This document shows, in pieces, positions 17,456-55,514 of a stretch of 64,000 bases of DNA. The notes under the pieces are model-generated. The model was not told where the DNA came from and searched no databases. It saw only the letters and a program-made list of their open reading frames with translations. The DNA is taken from the IMG/VR virus record IMGVR_UViG_3300043811_000226. The stretch is one strand, 5' to 3'. A program made the translations under genes and the position numbers. Source of the stretch: a virus. Numbering within the stretch: the stretch's first letter is position 1; every line of letters starts with the position of its first letter.

Positions 17456-20400
17456 CTAGTAGTGGTGGGACGGTACAGCCTTCAGGTGCTCTCGCCCAGG
17501 CACCAGAGAGTCCTTCTTCGTCAGCCCAAACTCGGCCCCAAAAGCCACGCCCGGCACAGGATGCGTTCCGTGGAGGTGCGATACGCCGGCAGTTGCTGCT
17601 GCATCCAGCAACGTCGCACGAAGCTTCTCGTGCTGCAACTTCGCCATCCAGTCTTCTTGCATCTCGAGGGGTAGGGCCGTGATGCCCTTGAGCACGGGGG
17701 TGTGTTCTATGGGAGTGAGTCCTTGCGCCGCGAGCTCCTTGTTCCTCTTGTTGACCGAGGTCAAAGGACGGTACTCCCCTGGTAGAACATCTGGGTGACC
17801 ACCGGGGTCGACGACGCGGGTGAGGTTACTCATTGCCTTGACCACGGTCTCGACCGCGCGACGCTTGATGTCGGTCTCCTTGTACAACCCGTAGATCTCG
17901 TTGGACAGATGGTTCTGCACCTTCTCCATGGAACCGGTGGCCTCATAGATGCGGTGCGGGTTGGCGAACGTGCGGTTCGGGTCCGAGAGATGATCTCCTG
18001 CTGTTACGTGCATTCCTACAGCAGGAGGCTTCCATGCCTTGTAGCCGACAAGTGCCTCGGCGTTGGGAAGATTTTTGTGCAAGGGCAGACCACTGTCGTC
18101 CTTGCCGACGTGGTGCCGCCGATTGTTCACGAAGACGTCGACGCCCGTAGCCGTTGGCTGCACCTTGTCGATGGTCCCGGAAACCATGGCGAGCGATGCC
18201 TCGTTCGGCAGCTCGTCGTGAAGCTCCATCAGTTGCTTGAACCGAGAGAAGGAGGAAAGAAGCTTCGAGCCGTGTTGTTCGCCAACGCCCCCCATGTGGA
18301 AGCTCTTGAGCGTGAGTTGCATGGCACGTTCGCCGACCGCATGCGCTGAATGCACGCCCACGTTCGTTCCGAGGTCGTGATGCTGCCCGCCGGCACTGAG
18401 CCCCATACACTTTTGGCAGATGCCCTTCTCGCTCTCGCACTTGAGCGGTGAGCGAACAAGAAGCGTTCCGTTAGGCTTGGCGGCCTTCACCTTACTGACG
18501 AGGTCCGGTGTCAGAAGCGTTCCGGCAGGAATGTGCAGCTTGCCGTGAGAGAAATCCTGCTGCAAGTAGCGGTCGTGTATGTCCGGCTCGTTGATATCGA
18601 GCGCGATGCCTTTGCTGGTACCGCAATCGTGCTCGTCTACGAGCATGTGCATCATGTTGTTCATGAGCCGCTTGGACATGTACCCAGGCTCGCTCACTTC
18701 CTGCACCTTCATGACCGCACCGCGCCGTGCGCCGTGCATCTGCGTCCAGTAACCGCCCAGATCCAGGCCTTCGGAGTAGCTCCTGGTGACTGGAGTCGCG
18801 ATCTCCTTGTCGTTCGAATCCTTGTAGATCATAGGAGCGATGACCATCTGCTTGTAGTTGTCCCAGCCCGGCTTCACACCCGCACGGTACATCGTGAAGA
18901 GGTTGGTCGGATCCTTGTCCTGCTTCTTCTCATGCAGGGCACGCATCTCCTTGTCCGCCTTCTTGTAGAGGACGAGAGCCTGCTGATCCTTCTCAGCCTG
19001 GGAGAGACGCGAGTTGTGCTCGATGACGTCGACCTGCTTCATCACCGGGGCGAGTACGTGGTCACGCACCTGAGTGTCGGGCGTGAAATCGGCCAAGGAT
19101 AGCGTGTGCGCTCCCATGGGAACGAAGACCGACTTCTCCTTGATCGCCACGGGCGTCTTATCGAGCGTTTTGAAGAGGAGCTTGTGACCTGCACTCGTAG
19201 GCTGCGGTATGTCGACCACGCCAAAGGCCGCGCCGTTGCCCAGGTCCTTCAGCTTGTTGACGGCCTCCCCATACTGCGGTGCGTGCTCTTTGGCGACCTG
19301 TGTGAGTAGGGTGTCGAGACCACCTTTGTTGATGCGGTAGTCGAGGTTGTGCAACGTGTGCGTCTGCATGTCCGCGGGCAGGGCGCTCGAGAGCAGAACA
19401 CGACCTGCCGTGGTCTTCTTTCCACCCAGGTGCACCACATCGTTCACGTGCAAGCTGCCGCTACGTACGGCATCGAGGATGCTGCCGGGGTGGTCGAACT
19501 TTTTTCCCGTGTCCTTGCCAACCAACGACAGCTTGTAGAGGCCGAGGGCGCTCTCGAGCGTCGGCTGGTACATGACCTTGCCGCTCGCCTCGCTGAAGAG
19601 GTTGTTCGACGGGAACATCTTGTGCGCCTCTTCGAGCGCTTCGCGCGTGATGGGCACGAAGGCACTCATCGTGTCGCCGTCGAAGTCGGCGTTGAAGCCG
19701 CCAGTCACAAGCGGGTGGATCTTGATGGCGCTGCCCTCGACTGGACGGGCCTTGAAGGCCTGCACGCTGTACTTGTGCAGGGCCGGGTCGCGCTTCAGAA
19801 GGAGAGGGCGCTTGTCCATCACCCGGTCAAGAGCACGCCAGACCTGCGGCGTCTTCTTGGCGAGAGCCGCAGGTCCCTGCATCTCGTTCTGAATGGCGCC
19901 CATCTCCTTGAGCTCGCGCACGACGAAGGGGCGGTACAGGTCCAGTGCGGCATGCCTGGGGATCCCCACTTCATCAAGTCCGAGCGCGGGCTCCGGAACG
20001 ATGGTGGACCGCATCGTCAGGTCCTGACGCCGGTTGATGAGAACGTCCTGGAAGAAGCCATGCTTAGGCGAGCTCCCCGTGATCTCGTGGAGAAGCCCCT
20101 TGTGCGGAACCTCCGCATACGTGCCGAAGCCCATGATGGCCTTGACGCCATCGTAGTAGTCGCGGCGTAGATCCTTCTTGCCCTCGTCGGTGAGGTTCTT
20201 GGAGAGAACCGGGTCCTTCAGCTTGTCGTTGACCTTGGCGAAGTCCGAGTAGAGCGAGTTGATGTCGTGGAACCGTACGTTGCCATCAGGCAGCATCGAG
20301 ACCGGACGCATGATGGGTGGCAGCACAGGTAGCTGGTGAAGTACGTACGCCTCGCTCGGCTTCATGCCTGTCTGGCTGAGTGCACGCAAGTACTTCACCT

Positions 20401-41433: not shown

Positions 41434-42744
41434 ATGGCCTTCGGCAAAGACGCACGCACACTGAACGCAGTCAGTGCGTTCGGTTCTCTTCGGCAGCAAA
41501 CCGCAGCAGCCACCAAGCAAGCCGGCAAACGAGCAAGTAGGGGCGGTCCGCCTTACTTCGTCGACATGTATCAGCCCAGCATGACGGACATCGACACGAT
41601 CCGTCTCGTACCTGGCGAGTACCTGCAGGACTACATTGAGGGAGAAGGGGACAACGCCCAGCTCGTGCAGAAGCTCGCGACCTTCGTCAAATTCGTCGAC
41701 CATTTTGACGGACACATGCAGCGCGGCGCCATCTGCAGCGCAGGAGCCTGGGCCAACGACAGAAACAAGCGCTCCCCCTGTTACGGATGCGACATCTACT
41801 GGGAGACGGCGGCGCGCAACACCGAAGGTCGTTTCACCTCGACGCGCATCAGCAGGCAAAACAAGTACGCGTTCTGCGTCTTCGACTACGCCCGCTACCA
41901 CAAGATGGAGCAGATCTACCGGTCGAACGGCCAGGTGCGAAGAGACAACAAGGGCCAACCCTTCTACAACTGGGTCAAGTGCCAAGGCCAAGGCTGCGAC
42001 GCGTGCCGCGCACCCAACATCGAGACCAAGCAGGGCAACATGAGCCACTGGCCCATGAATTACACCCAGCTGCAGGTTCTGCGCGCTGCCGAAACGAACA
42101 TCGGCAAGTCCTGCACGACGTGCGGGTCGGTCAACAGCATCAACAGCATGGCCTGGCTCTGCTCGAATTGTAAGGAGTGCGCCATCGACATGGCGACGAC
42201 GCACCTGAAGAAGGACGAGCTCCTGCAGATCACCGACAACCTCTGCCAGTGCGCCTCGTGTGGGCAGCAGGTTCTTCTGACTGAGGTCTACGAGTGCAGC
42301 GTCTGCGCCCAACGCGGGCAGCAGGGAGTGCGCGCCACGCTCTTCGACGTCGACTTGCAGGTGCAGCTCATTCCGATGCCCAACGACCAGAAGAACCTGC
42401 AGATCTCAGGCTGGTCGCAACCATACCCGATCCCGGCGCAGTTCGCCGAAGCGGCCAAGCCCCTCGACCTCGTGGCGAAGTACAAGCCGGACTCGCTCGA
42501 GTACCAGGCTTCTCGTTTCGGCATCAAGGTCAATGCGCCTGCCCCCGGTGCCACCGCTCCACAGCGGCAGCCGCAGACAGGCCCACAGCAGGGGTACCAG
42601 CAACCTCCGATGCAACAAGCCCCTCAGGGCTATGCGCCGCAGCCACAGCAAGGCTACACCCCGCCGCAGTACCAGCCTCCGATGCAGCAAGCTCCCGCAC
42701 GCCCCTACCAGGTTCCGTACGGGAACAAGCCTGCCGGGCAGTAG
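41434..42744 (+). CDS. Putative T4 gp32-like ssDNA-binding protein with extra Zn ribbons
   Basis: FVDHF..ICSA..CYGC core pattern; location between primase and polymerase; several further CxxC pairs; Q/P/Y tail. Confidence 0.55.
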   Translation: MAFGKDARTLNAVSAFGSLRQQTAAATKQAGKRASRGGPPYFVDMYQPSMTDIDTIRLVPGEYLQDYIEGEGDNAQLVQKLATFVKFVDHFDGHMQRGAICSAGAWANDRNKRSPCYGCDIYWETAARNTEGRFTSTRISRQNKYAFCVFDYARYHKMEQIYRSNGQVRRDNKGQPFYNWVKCQGQGCDACRAPNIETKQGNMSHWPMNYTQLQVLRAAETNIGKSCTTCGSVNSINSMAWLCSNCKECAIDMATTHLKKDELLQITDNLCQCASCGQQVLLTEVYECSVCAQRGQQGVRATLFDVDLQVQLIPMPNDQKNLQISGWSQPYPIPAQFAEAAKPLDLVAKYKPDSLEYQASRFGIKVNAPAPGATAPQRQPQTGPQQGYQQPPMQQAPQGYAPQPQQGYTPPQYQPPMQQAPARPYQVPYGNKPAGQ

Positions 42745-45206: not shown

Positions 45207-45348
45207 AGGCGTGAACCAGGAAGAACTGGAGAAGGCAGCTACAGATGGCTGCCCCGTATGCGGCAAGAAGCCCACGAGGCACGGCAACGTTCTGCTGTGC
45301 CCCGTGCACGGCTCGGAGCCCTTCGAGCAGAACAAGAAGAAGACCTAG
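45184..45348 (+). CDS. 54-aa zinc-ribbon protein
   Basis: GGAGGT SD; CPVC...CPVH. Confidence 0.65.
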   Translation: MDKFGVDEGVNQEELEKAATDGCPVCGKKPTRHGNVLLCPVHGSEPFEQNKKKT

Positions 45349-45356
45349 GAGAGACC

Positions 45357-46646
45357 ATGCCGCGAATGCCCGTCACAGATCTGAACAAGGGAATCGCGCA
45401 GCTCGAAGCTGCGCTCAACAAGAAGCCGGCTGTGAAGGGCGCCCAGGTGATGACGGACATCGATCTGGCGCCCAACACCTACTTCCTCCGGCGACCGTCA
45501 GGCATCATGTCACTCGACATCCACACAGGCGGGGGGCTCCCGGCGGGCGGGCTCACCTACCTGAGTGGTCCGGACGGCGCAGGGAAGACGTTCCTTCTCT
45601 ACAAGTACCTCGCAATGAACCAGAGGCTCTACGGCCTCCGCTCAAGCCTCGCTATCGGCGTGAGCGAAGCAGCGCCGGACCACTTCTTCATGAGGAAGTG
45701 CGGCGTGCAGATCTGCATCCCGGAGCAGATGATCGCCGAGCGCGTCGCCGAACGAAAGGACCGCGGAATGCCTTCCTTCACCAAGGATCAACTGAAGGAG
45801 TTTAGGACACCAACCGTCGGTCAGCTGAAGATCCTGCGTGGCGCGAATGGTGAGGAGCTCCTCATGGCCATCTTGGCCTGCTTCGAGTCGGGTCTCTTCG
45901 ACATCGTAGGCCTGGACTCTGTCTCTGCAGTACTTCCTGAAGCCGACGCCGGCAAGGACCTCGACGAGGCAGCCAAGCGCGCCGCGGCGGCGAGTATGCT
46001 CACGAGGTTCTTCCAGCACTACCTCAACGGCACAACCGGCTACTACGGCCAGAACCCGACCACGGTCATCTTCACCTCCCAGGTGCGCTCGAACTCGAAG
46101 AAAGCCGAGGCGCCGGCGAACATCGCCAAGTACTTGCCGGACTACGCTCCCCAAGGCGCGTGGGCGGCCAAGCACGGCAAGCTCATCGACATCCTTGTGA
46201 AGGGTGGTGCCAAGGACAAGGAAGAAGTCGAGACCAACTCACAGCCTTCTTCCCTCGGCCAGGCCGTGGCGCAGAAAAAGAAGCGTGTGCAGGTCGGCAA
46301 GGTCATCAACTACGAGGTGCTCAAAGGCAAGGCTGGCGTGCACGAGGGCATCACCGGGGAGTTCGACTTCCACTTCCCCGGCAACGCTGCCGAGATGTAC
46401 GACCCAACCAAGCTGCTCACCGAGGACCAGCGCATGCTTGTCATTGCTGCCATCCAAAGTGGGCTAGCAGAAGAGAAGAACGGGTTCGTGACCTTCTACG
46501 ACATGATGGGTGCTCCTAGACCCGGACTTACGAAGGTCGCTGGTATCGAACGCGTCGTCGACATCATGAAGCAGAACTTCGACGTCGAGCTGACAGTACG
46601 ACGTGACCTACTCTCCGATGCAGGCATCGAATGCGCGTATCGCTGA
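45357..46646 (+). CDS. recA: RecA/UvsX-like recombinase
   Basis: SLDIHTGGGLPAG, GPDGAGKT, LDSVSA, FTSQVR. Start moved to ATG 45357. Confidence 0.88.
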   Translation: MPRMPVTDLNKGIAQLEAALNKKPAVKGAQVMTDIDLAPNTYFLRRPSGIMSLDIHTGGGLPAGGLTYLSGPDGAGKTFLLYKYLAMNQRLYGLRSSLAIGVSEAAPDHFFMRKCGVQICIPEQMIAERVAERKDRGMPSFTKDQLKEFRTPTVGQLKILRGANGEELLMAILACFESGLFDIVGLDSVSAVLPEADAGKDLDEAAKRAAAASMLTRFFQHYLNGTTGYYGQNPTTVIFTSQVRSNSKKAEAPANIAKYLPDYAPQGAWAAKHGKLIDILVKGGAKDKEEVETNSQPSSLGQAVAQKKKRVQVGKVINYEVLKGKAGVHEGITGEFDFHFPGNAAEMYDPTKLLTEDQRMLVIAAIQSGLAEEKNGFVTFYDMMGAPRPGLTKVAGIERVVDIMKQNFDVELTVRRDLLSDAGIECAYR

Positions 46647-47215
46647 GCGCCGAAGCACGCAACGGCATTTGCTCCAAGTGCGCCGCGGGTAGTCACGGCA
46701 TCCCCATCCTCGTCATCCCTTTCATGCTCACTGTCGAAGGGCACGCCGGCGAAGCAGGGGCTCTCTGCCAGGGTTGTCTCTTCGAACCTGGGGGTCTGTC
46801 CGTTCAAGTACCCATGGAGAACTTGGCGCCCGGTCCAGCGCCTCGCAGGAAGTCGCTGAAGAAGGCAAAGAAGGCTTCCCAGCGCCTCGAACTTGACGTG
46901 GCTATCGAGCTGAGCGAGGTCTACGGCGAGGGCTCTGTCCGCACCCAGCCAGGCTCCGGCAACCAGAGGGGAGCCAAGGGCGACTTGCGCATGAAGGGTG
47001 GCCTGCGCGTGGAAGAGAAACACACGCAGGCCGAATCGTTCTCCCTCAAGCTCGACGAGCTCTACAAGATCGCCGGCGAGGCAGGAGCAGGAGAGATGCC
47101 TCTCTTCGTCATTGACTTCGTCGAACAAGGAACAAGGAAGCTGAAAGACCGCTTCGCCGTCTTGCACTTCCACGACCTGAAGGGACTCCTGCATGTCGCT
47201 CGCGAGCATCGCTGA
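46631..47215 (+). CDS. Zn finger + PD-(D/E)XK nuclease (Hjc-like resolvase)
   Basis: CSKC/CQGC; PGSG...GDL...VEEK. Confidence 0.7.
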   Translation: MRVSLSAEARNGICSKCAAGSHGIPILVIPFMLTVEGHAGEAGALCQGCLFEPGGLSVQVPMENLAPGPAPRRKSLKKAKKASQRLELDVAIELSEVYGEGSVRTQPGSGNQRGAKGDLRMKGGLRVEEKHTQAESFSLKLDELYKIAGEAGAGEMPLFVIDFVEQGTRKLKDRFAVLHFHDLKGLLHVAREHR

Positions 47216-48065
47216 CCTGAACAAGCCCATCGAGGTCCTCACCCCCTACATCGAGATGGCGAAGAAGCTCTCCGCCGTCTACGACGACTTCGTCCTGCTC
47301 GAGCAGGATGGCCACGACCGCGAGCCCGGCATCCACGCCTCCGAGCTCTATCCGTGCCTGCGAAAGCCCGTCTACTCGCTGATGGGCGTACCGCGAAAAC
47401 CGATGGTGTCGAAGTTCTGGAAGCAGCGCTTCAAAATCGGCAAGGCCACACACAAGATGCTGCAGGATGACTTCCACGCCATCGCAACGCGCTCCCAGAA
47501 GGGACACGCCATGCGCGTGGCGGCGTCGATGGCCCAGGAGATGGACTGCACTGTCGAGTTCGAGGACGAGGTGCCAGTCAACCCCAAGCACCAGCCGCTC
47601 GCCGCGCACTACCAGATCTTCTCCTCAGCGGACGGCGTCTTCGTCTTTCGCAGCAAGGCCACCAGCGAGGTCGTTTTGCGCGTGGGACTCGAGATCAAGA
47701 CCGAGTCACCGGACGAGTACGCAAAGCTCAAGGAGCCGAAGAAGGAGCACGTTCGCCAGGCCCACCTGTACATGGCGAACCTAGACCTGCCCTTGATGTG
47801 GTTCTTCTACATCAACAAAGGCAACCAGAACAACACGCCGTCGACCTCCCCGTGGCTCATCACATGGCAGCCGCAAGTCTGGGAAGAGATCGAAGCGCGC
47901 ATCCAGACCGTGCACGCCTTCGCCGCTCGCGGTGAGCAACCTGAACGAAATGAGGGCATCTACTGCGAGTTCTGCCCGTGGAAGTACACATGCCAGCCGT
48001 CGAACATGACGCAGTCTCAGCGACCCCCCAGCCGAAAAGAAGACGTCCGCAGACCAGGAGCCTGA
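47193..48065 (+). CDS. Cas4-like PD-(D/E)XK exonuclease
   Basis: ASELYPC, GKATH, ADG, EIKT, QAHLYM, CEFCPWKYTC. Confidence 0.8.
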   Translation: MSLASIADLNKPIEVLTPYIEMAKKLSAVYDDFVLLEQDGHDREPGIHASELYPCLRKPVYSLMGVPRKPMVSKFWKQRFKIGKATHKMLQDDFHAIATRSQKGHAMRVAASMAQEMDCTVEFEDEVPVNPKHQPLAAHYQIFSSADGVFVFRSKATSEVVLRVGLEIKTESPDEYAKLKEPKKEHVRQAHLYMANLDLPLMWFFYINKGNQNNTPSTSPWLITWQPQVWEEIEARIQTVHAFAARGEQPERNEGIYCEFCPWKYTCQPSNMTQSQRPPSRKEDVRRPGA

Positions 48066-48066
48066 C

Positions 48067-48699
48067 ATGAGAGAGCCCCAGACTGGCGGCCTCCAGCTAC
48101 CGAAGGACATCGGCATCTCGGACACCGAAGTCCAAGTCATCGCCGGCCGATGGAACACCGTCGGCGACGTCGACGCCCGACTCAAAAGGTTCGGCATCCA
48201 CGAAAACCAGGAGCCCGACGTCGTCTGTCCCATTGTTACCGCGGAGGAGCTCGTCAACCCAGATCTCCAGCGGTACACCATCGTCTACGCAGCGCAGCTG
48301 CGCTGGTACAACTACGCCGTCCGTCTGCACGCGGACATCAAGGCCGTCCTCCTGGGCGTGCAAAACGAGATGTCCGACATCGAGTCCGCCAAGCGCATCC
48401 ACTTCCGGCAGCGCGACGAGGGCAAGAAGGACAAGGACAAGATGTCGGCGACCGAGATGAAGGACCTCATCAACATGGACCCGGTCTACCGCGAGCTGCG
48501 TGTACAGGAGCAGCACTTCTCGCAGCAGAACCTCAAGATGAGCGCCTGGGTCGAGTCGCTCGACCGAAACCTCAAGGTCGTCTCGAGGCAGATCGAGAAC
48601 CGCAAGGCGGAAGCCGCCGGCGGCATGCGTGAAGGCAACATGCCTGGCGCCACCATCGGCACTTGGGAGCAGCGGCAGGCAGCTCGTGGCGTTAGATGA
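48067..48699 (+). CDS. Coiled-coil protein, possibly UvsY-like recombination mediator
   Basis: Helical; LINMDPVY...SLDR...SRQIENR; lies in the recombination cluster. Confidence 0.45.
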   Translation: MREPQTGGLQLPKDIGISDTEVQVIAGRWNTVGDVDARLKRFGIHENQEPDVVCPIVTAEELVNPDLQRYTIVYAAQLRWYNYAVRLHADIKAVLLGVQNEMSDIESAKRIHFRQRDEGKKDKDKMSATEMKDLINMDPVYRELRVQEQHFSQQNLKMSAWVESLDRNLKVVSRQIENRKAEAAGGMREGNMPGATIGTWEQRQAARGVR

Positions 48700-49142
48700 T
48701 CCGCCTTGAGCTGCCCTGGGTCCCGCCCACCTCGAACCTGGCCTACTTCAATCTCCCAAGAGGAGGTAGGGCGCTCACAAAGAAGGGTCGAGCCTTCCTC
48801 ACGGAGACCAAGGCGCACATCGCTCAGCACTACCCGACCGCTCTACGCTTCTTTCGCCCGAACAAACCCTACGCGATGCTCCTACGCTTCTTCTTCAAGG
48901 ACATCGAGAACAAGGGCTACGCGAAAGGAAAGGCCGATGCGAGGTATAAGGTCTTCGACGGCGGCAACCGCACCAAGCTCCTCGAGGACGCTCTCAAGGA
49001 CGCAGGAGGCATCGACGACTCGCAGACCATGATCTCCATGTGGCAGAAAGTCTACGGGACACCCGAACGAACCGTCGTCTTCGCATGGAGCATGGAAGAA
49101 GAAAGCACCCCATTCGATGAACTCCTACGACAGCTCACCTGA
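48696..49142 (+). CDS. rusA: RusA-like Holliday junction resolvase
   Basis: PPTSN, DGGNRTKLLEDAL, IDDSQ. Confidence 0.8.
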   Translation: MIRLELPWVPPTSNLAYFNLPRGGRALTKKGRAFLTETKAHIAQHYPTALRFFRPNKPYAMLLRFFFKDIENKGYAKGKADARYKVFDGGNRTKLLEDALKDAGGIDDSQTMISMWQKVYGTPERTVVFAWSMEEESTPFDELLRQLT

Positions 49143-49494
49143 CGAGTTCTACGAGCTCTTCAACCGCTGCAATCACAGTGAGCTCTATCAGATTGCGCGG
49201 CGCAACGGGCATGTAGTATTCCCCAACGCCTCGCGCGAGACACTCATCCGACTCATCATCGGCCAAGAGATCTCTACAGCCATCGACCATGACATCGACG
49301 AGTGGCGCCTCGCCATCATGCGGTTTCTCATCGACCACCGGCGGATGCTCGAGACCCAGATCACCTGCCCCGCCAAGTCCTTCGACCCGCATGCCTGCTT
49401 CGGGTGCGTAGACGTCCAAGTCATCAGCTGCATCACCAGCAACGGCCACGAAAACCAACGACTCATCCAGCTTCGCAAGAAGAAGACCTTGTAA
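49117..49494 (+). CDS. Hypothetical protein with C-terminal Cys cluster
   Basis: 125 aa; CP...ACFGC...C. Confidence 0.65.
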   Translation: MNSYDSSPDEFYELFNRCNHSELYQIARRNGHVVFPNASRETLIRLIIGQEISTAIDHDIDEWRLAIMRFLIDHRRMLETQITCPAKSFDPHACFGCVDVQVISCITSNGHENQRLIQLRKKKTL

Positions 49495-49503
49495 GGAGAG
49501 ACC

Positions 49504-50397
49504 ATGTCCGAATCGACGATGACCCCACAGACCGCTCCCCGCGACCGCAACCGCCTCTTGACGGAGTCGCCCTTCCAGCTGCGCATCCTCGTCCAGAAAC
49601 TCGGCGGTCTGTCGACCGACGAGCAGAAGATGAGCTGGCACGACATGAAGTCGAAGGAAGCGCAGGTCGACTACGTGCTGAAGCTGCTGCTGCAGTGGGA
49701 CCAAGCCAATCCCGGCGCCGCGCAAGCGCCCCCTCCTGCCGGTCCGGTTCCCACCTCGAACGGAGCGATGCCTTACCAGCCGCCTCCCATGATGCAGGCA
49801 CCTCCGCAGCAGATGGTGCCACAACAGCCGCAGCAATCGATGCAGCCCGCACCACACTACGCTCCCCCTGGCGTGATGCCGCACGCTCCCATCCCTGGAG
49901 CGATGATGCAGGCACCTCCGCAAGTTCCGCAGGTCAACCCCGCCGCCGCGCAGCAGGTCCAGCAGGCCACAACCGAGACGACCAAAGCGCGCCGACAGCC
50001 GAGGACGCCCTCTGACGCACAGGCACCGCAACCCACCGCAGACATCGGCGTCGAGATCGTCGGACTGCTAACCACGCTCAAGGCCAGCGCCGATGCACAG
50101 GTCGCTCGCTACGATCAGTTCCAATCGTACCTCACCTCGTTGCTGCAAGAAGCGTCCGACTCCAAGAACAGTCGCGTCACCGCCCTCGAAGCCAAGTACG
50201 CCGATGTCCATGCGACGCTGCAGCAGACCAACCAGTACCTGCAGTCCATCTCGCAGGTGCAGACCTGGACGCTCCTGGCTTTCCTCACCTTCATGCAGGA
50301 GAACATGGGCGCGTCGATGACTGACCTCCTCGGAGCTGCCATCAGTGACAGCGCCACCTTCCAGCAGCTGGTGAACAAGGCCACGGGAAAAGTCTAG
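49504..50397 (+). CDS. Hypothetical protein: N-domain, P/Q linker, C-terminal coiled coil; ends at a slippery site
   Basis: 297 aa, AAGGAG SD; last codons ACG GGA AAA GTC TAG. Confidence 0.8.
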   Translation: MSESTMTPQTAPRDRNRLLTESPFQLRILVQKLGGLSTDEQKMSWHDMKSKEAQVDYVLKLLLQWDQANPGAAQAPPPAGPVPTSNGAMPYQPPPMMQAPPQQMVPQQPQQSMQPAPHYAPPGVMPHAPIPGAMMQAPPQVPQVNPAAAQQVQQATTETTKARRQPRTPSDAQAPQPTADIGVEIVGLLTTLKASADAQVARYDQFQSYLTSLLQEASDSKNSRVTALEAKYADVHATLQQTNQYLQSISQVQTWTLLAFLTFMQENMGASMTDLLGAAISDSATFQQLVNKATGKV

Positions 50398-50597
50398 TCG
50401 CCGTACTCGAAGACACGTGGCCTGGGTGCGTACGCCCCTCGACCGTAGACATTCTGCGCTACGACGAGGCTGCCATCGATGCTCTGAGCGACGCGTCGGT
50501 CCTACTACTCGCCCGCCAGGTCGGGGTTCTGGTTGATGAAGAGATCCAGTTCCCTGCCCTGGTGCGAGTGCGGCTAAAGCGCAACACCTACCAATAG
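50385..50597 (+). CDS. Putative -1 frameshift extension (68 aa) of the 49504 gene
   Basis: GGGAAAA at 50385-50391; the -1 frame is open to TAG 50595-50597, right before the terminator, and has no usable start codon. Confidence 0.65.
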   Translation, partial: GKSLVAVLEDTWPGCVRPSTVDILRYDEAAIDALSDASVLLLARQVGVLVDEEIQFPALVRVRLKRNTYQ

Positions 50598-50633
50598 AAA
50601 GGGTCGCTCTCCTTCGGGAGGGCGGCCTTTTTT
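50598..50633 (+). terminator. Intrinsic terminator between convergent blocks
   Basis: GGTCGCTCTCC-TTCG-GGAGGGCGGCC-TTTTTT. Confidence 0.85.
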
Positions 50634-50638
50634 CTTAG

Positions 50639-53600
50639 CTATTCGTCGCTAGGCTTGCCTCGACGGATGTAGATGGGTGCGTTGTCGCTGCTGTCCGACG
50701 AGGGCTGCGGGGCTACTTGGAGTGCTGGTATAGTCGTTATTGGGGCGGGCTTGCCAACGACGCGCGCCGAGACAGGCAACGTACTCGGAACGGCCGGAAG
50801 TACCAGAGGCCCAAGCTGTCCTGGAAGGAGTATGACAGGCGGTGGTGGTGGCGGCCCTGGGGGCGCCGGCGTGATCACGAGGAAGTAACTACCTACCCCC
50901 CAATCGTCGAAGATGCCCGCACCGAGCTCATAGTGCGGCGCCACAAAGGGCTGCGTACTGCCTTCGCCTGAAGCTACACCCGCAGGCGTCAAAAGCAGGG
51001 AGAGAGAAGATGTCGGCAGCGCTTCACCAGAGGAAACTCCCGCAGGCGTCAAGCTCAATGTGAGAACCGGGCGCGTCTGACCTTCTGCTCCTTCAATGCC
51101 TGCAACGAAGAACACGTGTGAGACTTCAGCAGGAGACAACACCTCCGCACTCGAGAGACCTGTGAGCGTAAAGGTGCTGCTCAACGTCTCGGCTCCGACG
51201 GCGCCTTCTCCTGTACCTGCAGGAGTAAGAACAAGGGCCACATCGCCAGCACCCACGTGTTCCTCCGACGCAACGCCGGGCAGCGTCGTAGTGAGCGTAG
51301 AAGTCTCGGGGGATAGGACTTCACCTGAAACAACACCGGTCAGCTTCCCTGTGGACGATGCAGTCGTACTTCCCACATCTCCACCGACGACTCCTGCAGC
51401 CGAAACAACAGGGCCGACCACAGGCCTGCCGACAGCTTCACCTGATGCAAGTCCTGGCAAGGTCGTCGTCTGTGTAGAAGTTGTGGGAGAAGTAGCCTCC
51501 GACGATTCAATGCCAGCCGGCGTTGCTGCAAACGAGATACGAGGAGAACCCAGGGCCTCGCTCGAGGCAACGCCTGACATTGTCACGATGATGCCAGTCT
51601 CCATGGCACCCTTGCCCACCTGCTCGTCGGACGGGACACCGGGAACGGTCGCAGTGAAGGAACTCGTTGGGGGAGACACGGCTTCGTCGCTCACGATGCC
51701 AGCAAGCTGAGAGACAACTGCGTGGACGACCCCGTGTCCCACCTGGTCGTCGCCGAGCGCACCCGGAGCCGTCGCGCCGAGGGTCGTCGAGGCGGGGCCC
51801 TCCTGCTCGTCGCTGGCGGCCCCCGAGAGGGTCCACGAGAGGTTCGTCGTCTCCCTCCCGAGCGCCTCGCCGGAGGCCACTCCGGAGGGGGCCAGGACCG
51901 CCGTAGCGGTCTCGGTGCCGACCGACCCCCCGTCGATGCCCGCCGCCGTCGTCCCGGACGTCGTGGAGGCCCCCGGGAGCCCCTCCGCACCCTCCACGCC
52001 GGTCAGGATCGAGGTGGCGCTCATCGTCTCGGGCGATAGCGTCTCGCCGCTCGGAACGCCGGCGGGGCCCACGGTGGGGCCGACCGCCGCGGGGCCCGCC
52101 TGCTCGTCGGAGGGCAGTCCCGCCAGGGTGCTCGTCTGCGAAGACGTCTCGGGCCCCACGTCGCCGCCGTCGATCCCGGATCCCGACAGGACCGCCGCCG
52201 TAGTCTCCGCACCCACACCCTCGCCCGACGGGACGCCCGCGATCGAGAGGTCCATCATCGTCGACGCCGGAGGAGACGCCTCGCCGCTGTCGACCCCCGC
52301 GAGGGTGGACGTGGTCGAGGACGTCTCGCTCCCGACACCGTCGTCGTAGACCCCGACCATGGTCCCCGCGACGACCTCGATGACCTCGGATCCGAGCGCC
52401 TCGCCGGAGCCGATGCCTGGGACCGCTAGCGTCGAGGTGATCGTCTCCTCGCCGACCACTTCTGCAGGTGGGACTCCCGCCGGCGCGACCACCGAGCTCA
52501 CATTCGGAGGACTCATCACCTCATCCGAGGCAGCACCTGGTTGCGAGAGATCTAGGGTGACGAGCGCACCCGCCGCCTGTCCTTCCTCTCCCGGAACGCC
52601 AGCGAGAGTGCTCGCGATAGAGAGCGTCTCCGGACTCAGCGCCTCCGCAGAGGTGACGCCGGCAGCAGATACGCTCGGACCAACCGAGGCCGGCGGCAGA
52701 GCCTCGCCGCTCGTCAGACCCGGAACGGTGAAGGTCGACGTCTCGGTGACGGACCCCGCCTGCTCCGCCGAGGGCACCCCAGCGGGGGACGGAGACGGAC
52801 CCACGTTCTCCGCGCCGACCGACTCGGCCGAGTGGACTCCAGCGACAGAGACGCTCGGTCCGACGTTTCCTGGTCCCACTTCCCCACCCGCGACCCCGGC
52901 AGGTCCAAGACCCATCGTCGTCGACGCAGGTCCGAGAACCTCCGCAGAGTCCACCCCCGAAGGAGACAGAGCGGGACCAACGTTCGCCGAGCCGACAGTC
53001 TCCGCCGAGTGGGCGCCCGCCGTGGAGACGTTAGGCCCGACGTTGCACGAGCCGTCCCCCTCGCCGCTCGCGACGCCAGAGGGACCGAGTCCGAGCGTCG
53101 TCGAGGCGGGACCGAGAACCTCCGCCGAGTCGATGCCCGTCAGGATGTTCGCCGCCGCCGCGGCCTTCACCGTGGGCTGCGTCGAGCCCTCCTCACTCGA
53201 GATCCCGGCGCCCTTCGTCGCGACGGTCGTCGTGGGCGCGCCGACGGTCTCGGCGCTGTGCACCCCTGAAGGCGCCAGTCCCAGCGTAATCAGGCGCACC
53301 GACGCGGGCGACTGTACCGCGAGGATCACCTGCACCCAGGTGGCACCCGGGCTGATCGGCGTCGTGGCCGTCTTCACCGTGCCCGCGATCGGCGCTGACT
53401 GCGTCTCGAGCATCGAGCCATAGCCTGTGACGCTGTTCGAGTCGGGGCTCCACCCAGCGCCGGCTCCCGTGGCGTTCGAGTAATTGAAGCAGTAGCCGAA
53501 GAGCAGCTCGTTGGGGGCTGCGGTGGTCGCAGGGCCAGCGGACGCGAGGCTGCTGTTGCCGCTGCCGAAGAGCACCGTGGGAGCGTCGATCATCGTGGCG

Positions 53601-54364
53601 GACTGCCCGCTCACCTCGACCACGTAGACCTCGGGCGCCGCGACGCCGCCGCCCCACGTGGCCTTTACCTTGTTGCCGGCGGCCCAGCGGTTGATCGATG
53701 CGCACTTGTAGACGGAGACCGATATGTTGTCGGTGCCGGGCGAGTACGTCGTCGATCCGACGAGCGTGTAGACGTTGCCGGCGTCGTCGGTGGGCGCGCC
53801 GGTCAGCACGTTCGTCGTGTCGCCCCAGCCGATGAAGACGAGGTTGCCGTTGCCGAGCGTCTGGGCCAGCGCAAAGGTCGCCGTGACCGAGCTTGGCGCG
53901 CCGTCGGTCACCGCCGTCTGCACGACGGCCGGCACGACTGGCGGCACGGGGGCGGTGCCCCCCTCGTAGGAGTGCAGACCCGCAGGCAACGGCGCCGGGC
54001 CCACGTTCGACGGCCCCACCTGCTCGCTCGAGTGGAGACCGGGCAGCGTCGTCGTGAGTGTGGAGGTGACGGGGCTCTCGGCCCCGCCCGAAGTGAGTCC
54101 GGGGAGCGTGCCGATGTGGTCCGCGATCGTGTCCGCTCCGACCTGCTCGGCGGAGGGGACGCCTGGGACCGAGAGGGCGACCGTCGTCGTCTGCGCCCCC
54201 AGGACCTCGTCCGAGGCGCTCCCCGGGATGGTCGCGTTCCCGACGGCCATCACGGTCGGCTCGGTCGCTCCCTCGTCCGACGGGATTCCCGCCGGGGCTA
54301 CGAAGACGGTCGGACCGATCTCCGCGACCGAGAAGCTCGCGATGGAGTTGTCCGCGATGGGCAC
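50639..54364 (-). CDS. Repeat-built fibre/filament protein (~45 units of ~20 aa)
   Basis: Recurrent G[VI]xSxE(x)xG unit; one inserted globular domain; Pro-rich C-terminus. Start moved to GTG 54364. Confidence 0.7.
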   Translation of the reverse strand: MPIADNSIASFSVAEIGPTVFVAPAGIPSDEGATEPTVMAVGNATIPGSASDEVLGAQTTTVALSVPGVPSAEQVGADTIADHIGTLPGLTSGGAESPVTSTLTTTLPGLHSSEQVGPSNVGPAPLPAGLHSYEGGTAPVPPVVPAVVQTAVTDGAPSSVTATFALAQTLGNGNLVFIGWGDTTNVLTGAPTDDAGNVYTLVGSTTYSPGTDNISVSVYKCASINRWAAGNKVKATWGGGVAAPEVYVVEVSGQSATMIDAPTVLFGSGNSSLASAGPATTAAPNELLFGYCFNYSNATGAGAGWSPDSNSVTGYGSMLETQSAPIAGTVKTATTPISPGATWVQVILAVQSPASVRLITLGLAPSGVHSAETVGAPTTTVATKGAGISSEEGSTQPTVKAAAAANILTGIDSAEVLGPASTTLGLGPSGVASGEGDGSCNVGPNVSTAGAHSAETVGSANVGPALSPSGVDSAEVLGPASTTMGLGPAGVAGGEVGPGNVGPSVSVAGVHSAESVGAENVGPSPSPAGVPSAEQAGSVTETSTFTVPGLTSGEALPPASVGPSVSAAGVTSAEALSPETLSIASTLAGVPGEEGQAAGALVTLDLSQPGAASDEVMSPPNVSSVVAPAGVPPAEVVGEETITSTLAVPGIGSGEALGSEVIEVVAGTMVGVYDDGVGSETSSTTSTLAGVDSGEASPPASTMMDLSIAGVPSGEGVGAETTAAVLSGSGIDGGDVGPETSSQTSTLAGLPSDEQAGPAAVGPTVGPAGVPSGETLSPETMSATSILTGVEGAEGLPGASTTSGTTAAGIDGGSVGTETATAVLAPSGVASGEALGRETTNLSWTLSGAASDEQEGPASTTLGATAPGALGDDQVGHGVVHAVVSQLAGIVSDEAVSPPTSSFTATVPGVPSDEQVGKGAMETGIIVTMSGVASSEALGSPRISFAATPAGIESSEATSPTTSTQTTTLPGLASGEAVGRPVVGPVVSAAGVVGGDVGSTTASSTGKLTGVVSGEVLSPETSTLTTTLPGVASEEHVGAGDVALVLTPAGTGEGAVGAETLSSTFTLTGLSSAEVLSPAEVSHVFFVAGIEGAEGQTRPVLTLSLTPAGVSSGEALPTSSLSLLLTPAGVASGEGSTQPFVAPHYELGAGIFDDWGVGSYFLVITPAPPGPPPPPPVILLPGQLGPLVLPAVPSTLPVSARVVGKPAPITTIPALQVAPQPSSDSSDNAPIYIRRGKPSDE

Positions 54365-54368
54365 GCGG

Positions 54369-55514
54369 TCACCACCACGCGATGTAGAGGAACCCGTTCC
54401 CTCCGGCGCCACCAGGACCGAACGTCACGCCGGCCCCGCCCCCCCCCCCGCCGCAGCCCCAGGATCCGTTGCCGCCCGTACCACCCGTACCCGCCGTCGC
54501 GCACGCGCCGCCCCCCGTACCGCCCCACATGAAGAACGGGTGTCCACGATCCCCGAAGAGAAACGATCCCGTGTGGCCCGCTCCTCCTGGACCACCCGCT
54601 ACCCCGGTCCCGCCGGGCACCGTCGCAGGGTAGTTGCTTCCCACGCCCGTCAGCGCGCCACCGGCGCCGACCGAGTTGCTCGAGCTGGCCGCGCCGCCGC
54701 CCGTGCCCGCGTTGGTAAAGGCGCCCGTCGCGCCTAGCGTAAGGGCGCTGCCCGCGACGGTGCCCGCCGCGTTTCCCCCGCCGGCCCCCTGCACGCCAGC
54801 ATTCGCGCTCCACGCCCCCTTCGGCGAAAAGCTCGTCGAGAGCGTTATGCCACCGCCCCCGCCGCCCGAGGCCGACCCGGAAGCGCCCCCGCCCGTTCCG
54901 CCCGAGGCGTTGCTCGCGGCGCTGATCAGGATGAGCCCACCCACCGACTGCGACGGAGAGTCCGCCACGTACGTCGTCGCGGGCGAGGACCCCGTCGCGC
55001 CGCTCGTGGACCCACCCGCCCCTCCGGCGCCGATCGAGTAGTAGAGCGCCGATGGCAGCATGGTCGCCATGAAGGTGATCGAGGTGACACCGCTAGACCC
55101 TCCGCCTCCACCTCCGCCCTTCGCCGTGCTCGTCGCCGCCGTCAGGCCCGCTCCGCCCCCTCCGCCTCCCCCGCACGCGACCATGTAGACGCTGGACGCC
55201 GACTTCGGCTTGACCCACGAGTTGTACCAGTTGCTCCCGTTCGGGACCCAGCCAGGGATGAGGACCTCGCGCGCCTTCGGGTTCGGCTTACCGTCGCCGA
55301 GCGCCGCCATGATGAACGGCATGAGGATCGGCGCCTGACCGATCTCGGGGTCCATCGGCGGCATTTCGCCGCGCCCCCAGTGCCACCAGAACTCCTCGTG
55401 CTGCCGCGGGATGGGGGCTCGCGCCAGCGCGACGAGCCGGTCGCGATCCGGCGTCCACAGGCGTCCTCCGCCGTCGTAGCGGTACGCCCTCGCCAGGCTC
55501 TCGCGGAGGCGCAT
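54369..55514 (-). CDS. Glycine-rich tail-fibre-type protein
   Basis: WVKP..VYMVACGGGGGGG ... GGAGGNGFLYIAWW pattern typical of phage Gly-rich domains. Confidence 0.7.
   Translation of the reverse strand: MRLRESLARAYRYDGGGRLWTPDRDRLVALARAPIPRQHEEFWWHWGRGEMPPMDPEIGQAPILMPFIMAALGDGKPNPKAREVLIPGWVPNGSNWYNSWVKPKSASSVYMVACGGGGGGGAGLTAATSTAKGGGGGGGSSGVTSITFMATMLPSALYYSIGAGGAGGSTSGATGSSPATTYVADSPSQSVGGLILISAASNASGGTGGGASGSASGGGGGGITLSTSFSPKGAWSANAGVQGAGGGNAAGTVAGSALTLGATGAFTNAGTGGGAASSSNSVGAGGALTGVGSNYPATVPGGTGVAGGPGGAGHTGSFLFGDRGHPFFMWGGTGGGACATAGTGGTGGNGSWGCGGGGGGAGVTFGPGGAGGNGFLYIAWW

Follow-up and report, generated by a model that had tools for sequence, protein, structure and literature searches.

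In tailed phages, -1 frameshifts are routinely annotated only in tail-chaperone genes, with a few known in capsid and tail genes. The shift in Escherichia coli dnaX sets the ratio of two isoforms; the shifted ribosome stops almost at once, and the shifted product is the short one. Among slippery heptamers, G_GGA_AAG is highly shift-prone in E. coli (PMC5009743), and in Microbacterium phage Bush the annotated shift site of the tail chaperone is GGGAAAA (PMC11749239). The efficiency of the shift in T7 gene 10 depends on terminator sequence more than 200 nt downstream, the 3' structure of IS911 is a three-way junction, and in some IS3 members a second element lies 44-104 nt downstream (PMC5009743).

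The locus described here lies in a 64,000-nt stretch of viral DNA (IMG/VR record IMGVR_UViG_3300043811_000226), referred to as the window. Comparison with related loci makes it very probable that the gene beginning at position 49504 contains a conserved programmed -1 ribosomal frameshift.

Genomic setting and geometry of the gene end

The 49504 gene is the last of a replication/recombination operon. Its upstream neighbours are RecA/UvsX-like, resolvase, Cas4-like exonuclease, UvsY-like and RusA genes and a 125-aa ORF, its downstream neighbour is a convergent gene for a 1257-aa repeat protein, and this synteny is conserved in relatives. The original prediction spoke of a replication-operon protein; the placement at the end of the replication operon stands, and the neighbours are more precisely described as a recombination set. 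Since the 297-aa product (P0001) has no assigned function, the label "replication protein" derives from position only. The gene does not lie between the major tail and tape-measure genes, where tail chaperones are encoded, and no tRNA genes were found in the window. The gene end comprises the following features.

49504..50397, + strand: 0-frame gene for P0001, 297 aa, from the ORF and its translation, ending ...ATGKV
50385..50391, + strand: slippery heptamer G_GGA_AAA (pattern X_XXY_YYZ), with GGA and AAA as 0-frame codons
50395..50397, + strand: 0-frame stop TAG, end of the short isoform, one codon past the heptamer
50385..50597, + strand: -1 frame extension ORF, from translation, with its stop TAG at 50595-50597
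50597..50633, + strand: intrinsic terminator hairpin and U-tract between the convergent operons, beginning at the -1 frame stop

The 3' end of the gene reads ACG GGA AAA GTC TAG, exactly as first described, in a register at which tRNA-Gly (on GGA) and tRNA-Lys (on AAA) are able to re-pair on GGG and AAA. In the window, the -1 frame is open from position 50349 to the TAG at 50595-50597; counted from GGG AAA, the extension ORF has 70 codons and supplies 68 new residues past the shared G-K. The predicted long isoform has 364 aa, with the junction ...ATGK/SLVAV..., and its extension peptide is predicted to begin SLVAVLEDTWPG right after the shared lysine. The original prediction had further stated that these 68 codons are protein-like, run to the terminator and have no usable start. 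All three statements were confirmed: the -1 frame is coding-like in its GC content at the three codon positions (0.73/0.39/0.69) and in the selection measure given below, the frame ends at the foot of the 50597-50632 hairpin, and the first canonical start (ATG, GTG or TTG) in the window's extension is codon 59. The homologue comparison likewise supports its reading that isoforms of 297 and about 364 aa would arise by a programmed -1 frameshift.

Folding of the terminator hairpin (50597-50632) gave -26.8 kcal/mol with a z-score of -5.1; a simple terminator scan had missed this hairpin, which folding shows clearly. A hairpin with a T-run was also seen by eye 3' of the extension in loci L001, L004, L010 and L011.

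Taken alone, the heptamer and open frame of the window are within chance. The window has two copies of GGGAAAA where 3.6 would be expected, and by our estimate from base composition an open frame of 68 codons would arise by chance with a probability of about 0.13 at 62% GC. The significance of the site rests on its conservation in 13 other distinct loci. The second GGGAAAA, at 19502-19508 on the - strand, is also in slippery register, inside the RNA polymerase gene; it was treated as adventitious because its -1 frame stops after 15 codons.

Conservation across related loci

We compared 14 distinct loci, the window included, all from metagenomes or uncultivated phages of about 100-195 kb and drawn from JGI, Logan/SRA, NCBI and IMG/VR assemblies, with different samples and assemblers. 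The upstream proteins of the related loci are 34-80% identical, two loci sharing the N-terminal domain only, and 13 homologues of P0001 (36-100% identity) each end in GK plus one or two residues. Conservation of the heptamer and of the -1 ORF in homologues was the check put forward with the original prediction, and both were kept throughout: GGGAAAA is identical in 14/14 distinct loci, and a -1 ORF of 69-72 codons lacking a usable start is present in the same 14. Between the heptamer and the 0-frame stop there are 6 nt in L005 and 3 nt in the other 13 loci. The body of the L017 and L021 proteins is no longer recognisable outside the N-terminal domain (hhalign, 98.5%), and these loci still keep the G-K codons, the heptamer, the stop and the extension.

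The codon preceding the heptamer varies (ACG, CTG, ATG or CCG, encoding Thr, Leu, Met or Pro), and its last base is always G. Both codons within the heptamer are rare here, GGA accounting for 16% of the codons used for Gly and AAA for 13% of those used for Lys. The last 100 codons contain nine invariant residues, of which only GGA, AAA and the preferred codon GAC are fixed at the codon level in 12/12 loci; most of the other invariant residues vary synonymously while GGA and AAA stay fixed. Conservation of the heptamer could partly reflect protein constraint, the G-K dipeptide being invariant, but such constraint would not explain the choice of rare codons.

Neither the homologues nor 1.8 billion representative proteins included a version with both parts fused in one frame. 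A search with P0001 spanning 163-520 aa returned only proteins of 164-313 aa, and an exhaustive HMMER search with the extension returned only ORF fragments of 37-80 aa.

Among GenBank phages, neither blastn with the locus nor tblastn with P0001 gave a match, and the GenBank phage relatives of the polymerase gene are all below 31% identity, indicating that there is no cultured relative. Searching IMG/VR with P0001 or its alignment yielded no locus; the IMG/VR loci were recovered instead with the extension alignment and a DNA pattern. A metagenome scan added one new partial locus, and the queries P0021 and P0022 gave no further loci. A scan of prokaryote genomes returned no match and thus no host or prophage lead.

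Coding potential of the extension

A signature of constraint had also been proposed as a check, and across the 12 loci measured pN/pS was 0.51 in the -1 frame compared with 1.2 and 1.5 in the other frames, which indicates that the -1 frame is under purifying selection as protein in these loci. Third-position variation in the extension alignment is typical of coding sequence, the peptide is conserved, with the motifs AVLDDxWPG and LVRVRLKRN, and an AlphaFold2 (AF2) model of the extension reached a pLDDT of 84.5.

In each of 12 loci, the -1 frame is devoid of ATG, GTG and TTG over the stretch that starts 40 codons before the heptamer and ends at the WPG motif, and the extension of L009 has none at all. 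The WPG motif is itself under protein-type constraint, since the third position of its Pro codon varies freely. The overlap of the two frames is only 46 nt in the window and in L014, and GGGAAAA was the sole slippery heptamer identified by eye within it.

Downstream RNA structure

The conserved structure past the heptamer is a predicted long-range helix, P1, with inner helices between its arms.

50392..50399, + strand: 8-nt spacer from the heptamer to the 5' arm of helix P1, from the alignment of 12 loci
50400..50409, + strand: helix P1 5' arm, GCCGTACTCG, from RNAalifold and from single-sequence MFE and centroid folds
50412..50564, + strand: predicted inner helices and three-way junction, from the RNAalifold consensus
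50565..50574, + strand: helix P1 3' arm, CGAGTGCGGC, in the R-V-R codons near the end of the extension

P1 is GC-rich and comprises 10 bp. It begins 8 nt past the heptamer, a distance within the roughly 5-9 nt expected of a canonical -1 frameshift cassette, has its 3' arm 174 nt past the end of the heptamer, and closes a structured domain of about 175 nt; a helix closing a 155-nt loop is an unusual stimulator. The spacer is fixed at 8 nt, as columns 1-26 of the 12-locus alignment contain no indels. P1 is kept in 12/12 aligned loci, with 98.3% of cells paired compared with 26-53% when the partner was slid, and in L017 and L021, which diverge most, the pairing seems to be displaced in register. 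For the whole structure, which was scored on the same alignment from which it was derived, 90.7% of cells were paired compared with 36-48% with slid partners, and 0/500 shuffles reached the observed values. The inner helices (approximately 50412-50427 with 50481-50497, and 50514-50532 with 50546-50564) had 83-92% of cells paired per helix and seven pairs changed on both sides; their support is weaker than that of P1. The fold z-score of the window sequence alone was -1.8.

Covariation in P1 comes from L009 alone, in which two U-A pairs became G.U through changes on both sides; these compensatory changes sit where the peptide encoded by the 5' arm is not conserved. Both arms of P1 also encode conserved residues. 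The 5' arm uses the rare Val codon GTA in 11/12 loci, and the 3' arm uses the rare codons CGA and CGG, together with GTA in seven loci and GTG in the window.

The original prediction had instead suggested a local stem downstream of the heptamer (GTCG at 50397 with CGAC at 50440, and CGTAC with GTACG). This stem exists in the window sequence only and was rejected because it is broken in the homologues. A search of Rfam with 50300-50700 gave nothing near threshold.

Protein domains of the two predicted isoforms

The AF2 model of P0001 featured an N-terminal helical domain of about 60 aa (residues 13-73), a P/Q-rich disordered linker (approximately 75-180) and a C-terminal helical hairpin or coiled coil (179-294). 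Structural comparison of the N-terminal domain with the Rho N-terminal domain 1a62_A gave a Z-score of 6.0 and an rmsd of 2.0 over 48 aligned residues, and residues 26-70 of the predicted extension aligned with the same structure with a Z-score of 4.2 and an rmsd of 2.0 over 43 residues. The extension also aligned with many SAP and LEM domains at Z-scores of 2.5-3.5. All these structural scores are within the chance range for small helical motifs. Its top matches in BFVD were phage proteins annotated "Rho termination factor N-terminal domain", at weak E-values of 0.18-0.5. The extension is confidently modelled as a small helical domain, and its resemblance to Rho-N/SAP motifs, like that of the N-terminal domain of P0001, is weak.

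Profile searches did not assign either part to a family. The SAP, Rho_N and HeH models of Pfam gave no match at E<=1 with 19 extension and 11 N-terminal sequences, and neither did any other Pfam family for these two domains. With the 297-aa protein as the query, Pfam returned only sub-threshold SOG2 and Tropomyosin, and it returned nothing for the extension at E<=0.1; PHROGs contained no family for either at E<=0.01. A PDB profile search gave nothing significant for P0001 or the extension, the extension had no Foldseek match in the PDB, and the ESM Atlas gave no usable match. A duplication relating the N-terminal domain to the extension was considered and is unsupported (hhalign probability 2.6%).

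Proposed mechanism

When ribosomes arrive at G_GGA_AAA, tRNA-Gly would occupy the P site and tRNA-Lys the A site, and helix P1, 8 nt downstream, would be placed to resist unwinding at the mRNA entrance. Some ribosomes would slip back one base onto GGG AAA, and the helix would presumably stimulate the slipping. Those that do not slip would add one more residue and stop, giving the 297-aa protein; those that slip would continue across the structured domain for a further 68 codons, ending at the terminator with the 364-aa protein. That ribosomes slip, and at what rate, is inferred.

Both isoforms would share the N-terminal Rho-N/HeH-like domain, the P/Q-rich linker and the coiled coil, and only the long one would carry the second small SAP/Rho-N-like helical domain. 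If HeH-like domains bind nucleic acid, as the modeled folds lead us to suppose, the shift may set the ratio of one-headed to two-headed molecules. It is also conceivable, although in our view unlikely, that the shift sets the ratio of one- and two-HeH forms of a coiled-coil recombination protein acting on DNA or RNA, and that the long-range helix, clamping the whole extension ORF, is a new type of stimulator. Ribosomes translating the extension would then melt that stimulator, so frameshifting would be self-limiting and traffic-sensitive.

Discussion

The extension could be a separate small gene of about 50-65 aa, expressed through non-canonical initiation or through termination-reinitiation after the TAG, with no frameshift. 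In several relatives, the gene callers of the source databases do report ORFs of 37-63 aa that begin at an internal GTG, TTG or ATG. On L016, a short contig, the extension domain forms an 80-aa ORF by itself, with its own GTG overlapping the upstream stop (GTGA), from which it follows that the domain can be expressed without a shift in some lineage. However, the lack of a canonical start before codon 59 in the window, anywhere in the extension of L009, and up to the protein-constrained WPG motif in all 12 loci speaks against a separate gene, and such a gene would give no reason for the rare GGA AAA to be fixed at the codon level; we regard this explanation as improbable. Very improbable is that the 200 nt past the stop form an untranslated, structured 3' region, serving mRNA stability or processing or as part of the terminator, with the open frame incidental. 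The conserved long-range helix and the predicted inner helices would suit such a region, and the arms are more conserved at the nucleotide level than the peptide requires (rare GTA, CGA and CGG), but the frame is open in 14/14 loci, the low pN/pS (0.51, 12 loci) is confined to the -1 frame, third positions vary as in coding sequence, the pLDDT is 84.5, and the version in L016 is coding and stands alone.

Two isoforms from one gene would also result from transcriptional slippage, with RNA polymerase gaining or losing a base at the A run. Slippage of this kind is known to need runs of about seven or longer to be productive, and the run here is only A4 after G3. Although some bacteria and phages use A or T runs (PMC5009743), slippage would need neither the full X_XXY_YYZ register, including the upstream G, nor a structure at ribosomal spacing, and both are conserved; this origin is even less probable than an untranslated region. 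An indel from sequencing or assembly, or a recently broken gene, would make the true gene one 364-codon ORF, an outcome that had been named as a refutation of the original prediction. Only the generic possibility of such errors speaks for it, against an identical frame layout across JGI, Logan/SRA, NCBI and IMG/VR assemblies (14 distinct loci) with no in-frame version found, and its probability is close to negligible.

With a programmed -1 ribosomal frameshift as the preferred reading, the locus would represent a deeply conserved frameshift in a non-structural, replication/recombination-linked family of uncultivated phages of about 100-195 kb. Gene callers do not annotate it, and databases show either nothing past the stop or spurious fragments of 37-63 aa; the comparison would expose a missed protein isoform together with a missed small domain family. 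The two isoforms would differ by one putative nucleic-acid-binding module, which offers a handle on an uncharacterised protein. The candidate long-range, three-way-junction stimulator, with its fixed 8-nt spacer, would also provide a natural test case.

Comparison with known systems

The 49504 gene resembles lambda gpG/gpGT and other tail chaperones in its type of heptamer, in the location of the shift near the end of the upstream ORF and in the conservation of the site in distant phages (PMC5009743; PMC11749239). As in lambda-type chaperones, the long form would be the short form plus a C-terminal domain encoded in the -1 frame without a start of its own. Unlike the chaperones, it is not a tail gene and has no chaperone match in Pfam or PHROGs, the 0-frame stop follows after a single codon, and a long-range RNA helix is conserved.

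With E. coli dnaX (tau/gamma), the locus shares a replication-associated gene, two isoforms, a -1 shift at a Lys codon and a downstream structure. In contrast to dnaX, the shift here would lengthen the protein, the -1 frame running for 68 codons and the 0 frame stopping after one, and no conserved Shine-Dalgarno-like stimulator was evident by eye upstream of the heptamer. IS911 and the IS3 orfA-orfB genes likewise place an elaborate 3' structure after the heptamer, and a three-way junction is also predicted here; however, the insertion sequences use A_AAA_AAG and fuse two large ORFs into a transposase, whereas here a 68-residue domain would be added to a phage protein.

Gene 10 of T7 and T3 (capsid proteins 10A/10B) is similar in that the shift occurs at the very end of the gene and would place a short C-terminal extension on a minority of the molecules. 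The distal position of the T7 element also has a counterpart, as the 3' arm of P1 lies 174 nt past the heptamer's end and just before the terminator. The T7 site differs in being G_GUU_UUC in a capsid gene with an unexplained long-range effect, whereas here an explicit 10-bp helix follows an 8-nt spacer. The locus reveals no new recoding mechanism; it is a well-supported new example of a known recoding trick in an unusual gene.

Putative shift site and open frame in the window

The gene for the 297-aa protein P0001 ends in ACG GGA AAA GTC TAG, which places G_GGA_AAA (50385-50391) in the X_XXY_YYZ register. The -1 frame was open only from 50349 up to the TAG at 50595-50597, and reading through it would yield a product of 364 aa with a 68-residue C-terminal extension. 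The original prediction of a -1 frameshift had described the heptamer, register, stop, and open frame accurately. The window sequence alone does not put this cassette beyond chance: GGGAAAA occurred twice against 3.6 expected, and a 68-codon open frame has a chance probability of about 0.13 in 62% GC DNA, estimated from base composition. The sole internal hint was GC content, which at the three codon positions of the -1 frame (0.73/0.39/0.69) resembled that of real genes of the window; the case depends on comparison. The other GGGAAAA (19502-19508, - strand), also in X_XXY_YYZ register, lies within the gene for a 2173-aa RNA polymerase and is probably adventitious, because the -1 frame there stops after 15 codons.

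Features surrounding the putative frameshift gene
+ strand: tightly packed operon encoding a DnaB-like helicase, primase, family-A DNA polymerase, RecA/UvsX-like protein, resolvase, Cas4-like exonuclease, UvsY-like protein, RusA, and a 125-aa ORF
41434-42744, +: 436-aa ORF between primase and DNA polymerase, no Pfam or PHROG match
49504-50397, +: P0001 gene (297 aa), last of the operon, good ribosome-binding site ahead
50597-50633: terminator, strong hairpin and U-tract, beginning at the -1 frame stop (folding: -26.8 kcal/mol, z -5.1)
50639-54412, -: convergent gene past the terminator, 1257-aa repeat protein, four stretches matching PHROG 13352 (minor tail protein)

The terminator hairpin, with an A-rich 5' flank and the U-tract on its 3' flank, lies between convergent operons and may be active in both directions. 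Gene order ahead of the frameshift gene (window 45258-49494, +) was conserved in the related loci L001, L004, L005, L006, L010, and L011, running from RecA/UvsX-like through resolvase, Cas4-like exonuclease, UvsY-like, and RusA to the 125-aa ORF. Downstream, the relatives differed, with a large repeat protein, small ORFs, Thy1, or patatin; counterparts of the 1257-aa repeat protein measured 1176-1249 aa and occupied the same location.

Conservation of the cassette in homologues

Apart from its own database entry (100% identical), P0001 had 12 relatives in metagenomes (36-76% identity), all 164-313 aa long and none of the ~365-aa fused form; at the C-terminus, all had G-K followed by one or two further residues, with G295 and K296 invariant. 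No fused form turned up either when the extension was searched exhaustively with HMMER against 1.8 billion representatives; the only hits were seven ORF fragments, 37-80 aa long. Locus DNA was collected by exact-protein look-ups, one metagenome scan, an IMG/VR scan with the extension alignment, and a DNA-pattern scan, giving 14 distinct loci, window included. GGGAAAA was present in 14/14, with the 0-frame stop 3 nt after it (6 nt in L005), and so was a -1 ORF of 69-72 codons encoding a conserved peptide with the motifs AVLDDxWPG and LVRVRLKRN. Both elements on which the original prediction turned were kept at every distinct locus.

The codon 5' of the heptamer was ACG, CTG, ATG, or CCG, so that the amino acid varied and the last G was constant. 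Among the last 100 codons, which include 9 invariant residues, fixation at the codon level was confined to GGA, AAA, and one preferred GAC; in the phage, GGA accounts for 16% of Gly codons and AAA for 13% of Lys codons. A divergent subfamily of 370-aa proteins (L017:2799-3911, +; L021, - strand, heptamer at 429) shared with P0001 the N-terminal ~70 residues alone (hhalign 98.5%). These proteins end in P-G-K-x-stop, and their genes retain the same heptamer, a stop one codon past it, and the extension, which makes the recoding cassette better conserved than the rest of the protein.

Predicted RNA structure

RNAalifold analysis of 12 loci predicted a 10-bp helix, P1 (50400-50409 with 50565-50574), that encloses two inner helices and also appeared in the MFE and centroid folds of the window; the heptamer-to-P1 spacer was 8 nt in 12/12 loci. 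Scored on the same alignment from which RNAalifold derived the structure, P1 was 98.3% paired versus 26-53% with a slid partner (observed values reached in 3/500 shuffles), and the entire structure was 90.7% paired versus 36-48% slid, with 9 pairs changed on both sides (0/500 shuffles). Both compensatory pairs in P1, whose two arms are coding, came from one sequence, L009, in which the 5'-arm peptide is not conserved and pairing is retained through two double-sided changes (U-A to G.U). The P1 arms contain the rare codons GTA, CGA, and CGG. The fold z-score of the window was only -1.8, and Rfam gave no match at the locus. The corresponding regions of L017 and L021 could pair either with the register shifted (11 bp, one bulge) or at 7/10 positions in the original one. 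The local stem proposed originally (GTCG/CGAC and CGTAC/GTACG) was not conserved in homologues.

Probable translation of the extension and alternative explanations

Across 12 loci, pN/pS was 0.51 in the -1 frame, compared with 1.2 and 1.5 for the remaining frames, the selection signature sought for this ORF. The WPG motif is constrained as protein, because any of the four bases occurs at the third position of its Pro codon. This open frame and selection signal contradict the idea that the region after the stop is an untranslated RNA element. Initiation of the extension as its own gene is contradicted as well: in 12/12 loci, the stretch of the -1 frame that begins 40 codons 5' of the heptamer and extends to WPG contained no ATG, GTG, or TTG, the earliest start codon in the -1 ORF of the window was codon 59, L009 had none, and such initiation would not account for the heptamer being fixed at the codon level. 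An indel splitting one continuous gene, which would have undone the original prediction, is contradicted by the same arrangement in 14 independent assemblies. Polymerase slippage could in principle yield the long form but is unlikely with an A run only four long.

Programmed -1 frameshifting is the best reading and, on comparison of the 14 loci, very probably correct, in support of the original interpretation. tRNA-Gly and tRNA-Lys would slip in tandem on G_GGA_AAA in the canonical manner, P1, 8 nt downstream, would help the slip, and 297-aa and 364-aa isoforms would result in a fixed ratio.

At L016:51-293 (+), an 80-aa ORF encodes the extension domain by itself; it lacks the heptamer, begins at a GTG that overlaps (as GTGA) the stop codon of an unrelated ORF upstream, and is closest in sequence to the L015 extension. 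This suggests a module able to work as a separate protein, on a single contig of only 618 nt that could be chimeric.

Predicted folds

In the AF2 model of P0001, residues 13-73 formed an N-terminal helical domain predicted with confidence (pLDDT about 87), followed by a P/Q-rich disordered linker and a helical hairpin of lower confidence, which matched only generic coiled coils. The N-terminal domain aligned with the Rho N-terminal domain 1a62_A (Z 6.0, rmsd 2.0, 48 aligned). Residues 26-70 of the extension (pLDDT 84.5) aligned with Rho-N (Z 4.2, rmsd 2.0) as well as with numerous SAP and LEM domains, and the top BFVD matches of the extension were phage proteins named 'Rho termination factor N-terminal domain', all with weak scores. 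Since scores were weak and Pfam, PHROGs, and PDB profile searches matched no sequence family for P0001 or the extension, HeH class membership of both domains is a lead from predicted models and not a result. No relationship between the two domains was detectable by hhalign.

Comparison with known systems

The signal is of the type used in the chaperone shifts of lambda G/GT. A high tendency to shift has been documented for G_GGA_AAG (PMC5009743), and GGGAAAA is annotated as the shift site in phage Bush (PMC11749239). By both position and sequence, the P0001 gene is not a tail chaperone. The end-of-gene geometry and putative long-range dependence recall T7 gene 10, and the predicted three-way junction recalls IS911 (PMC5009743). 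New features are the gene family, the setting, and the predicted stimulator architecture; the mechanism itself is a known one.
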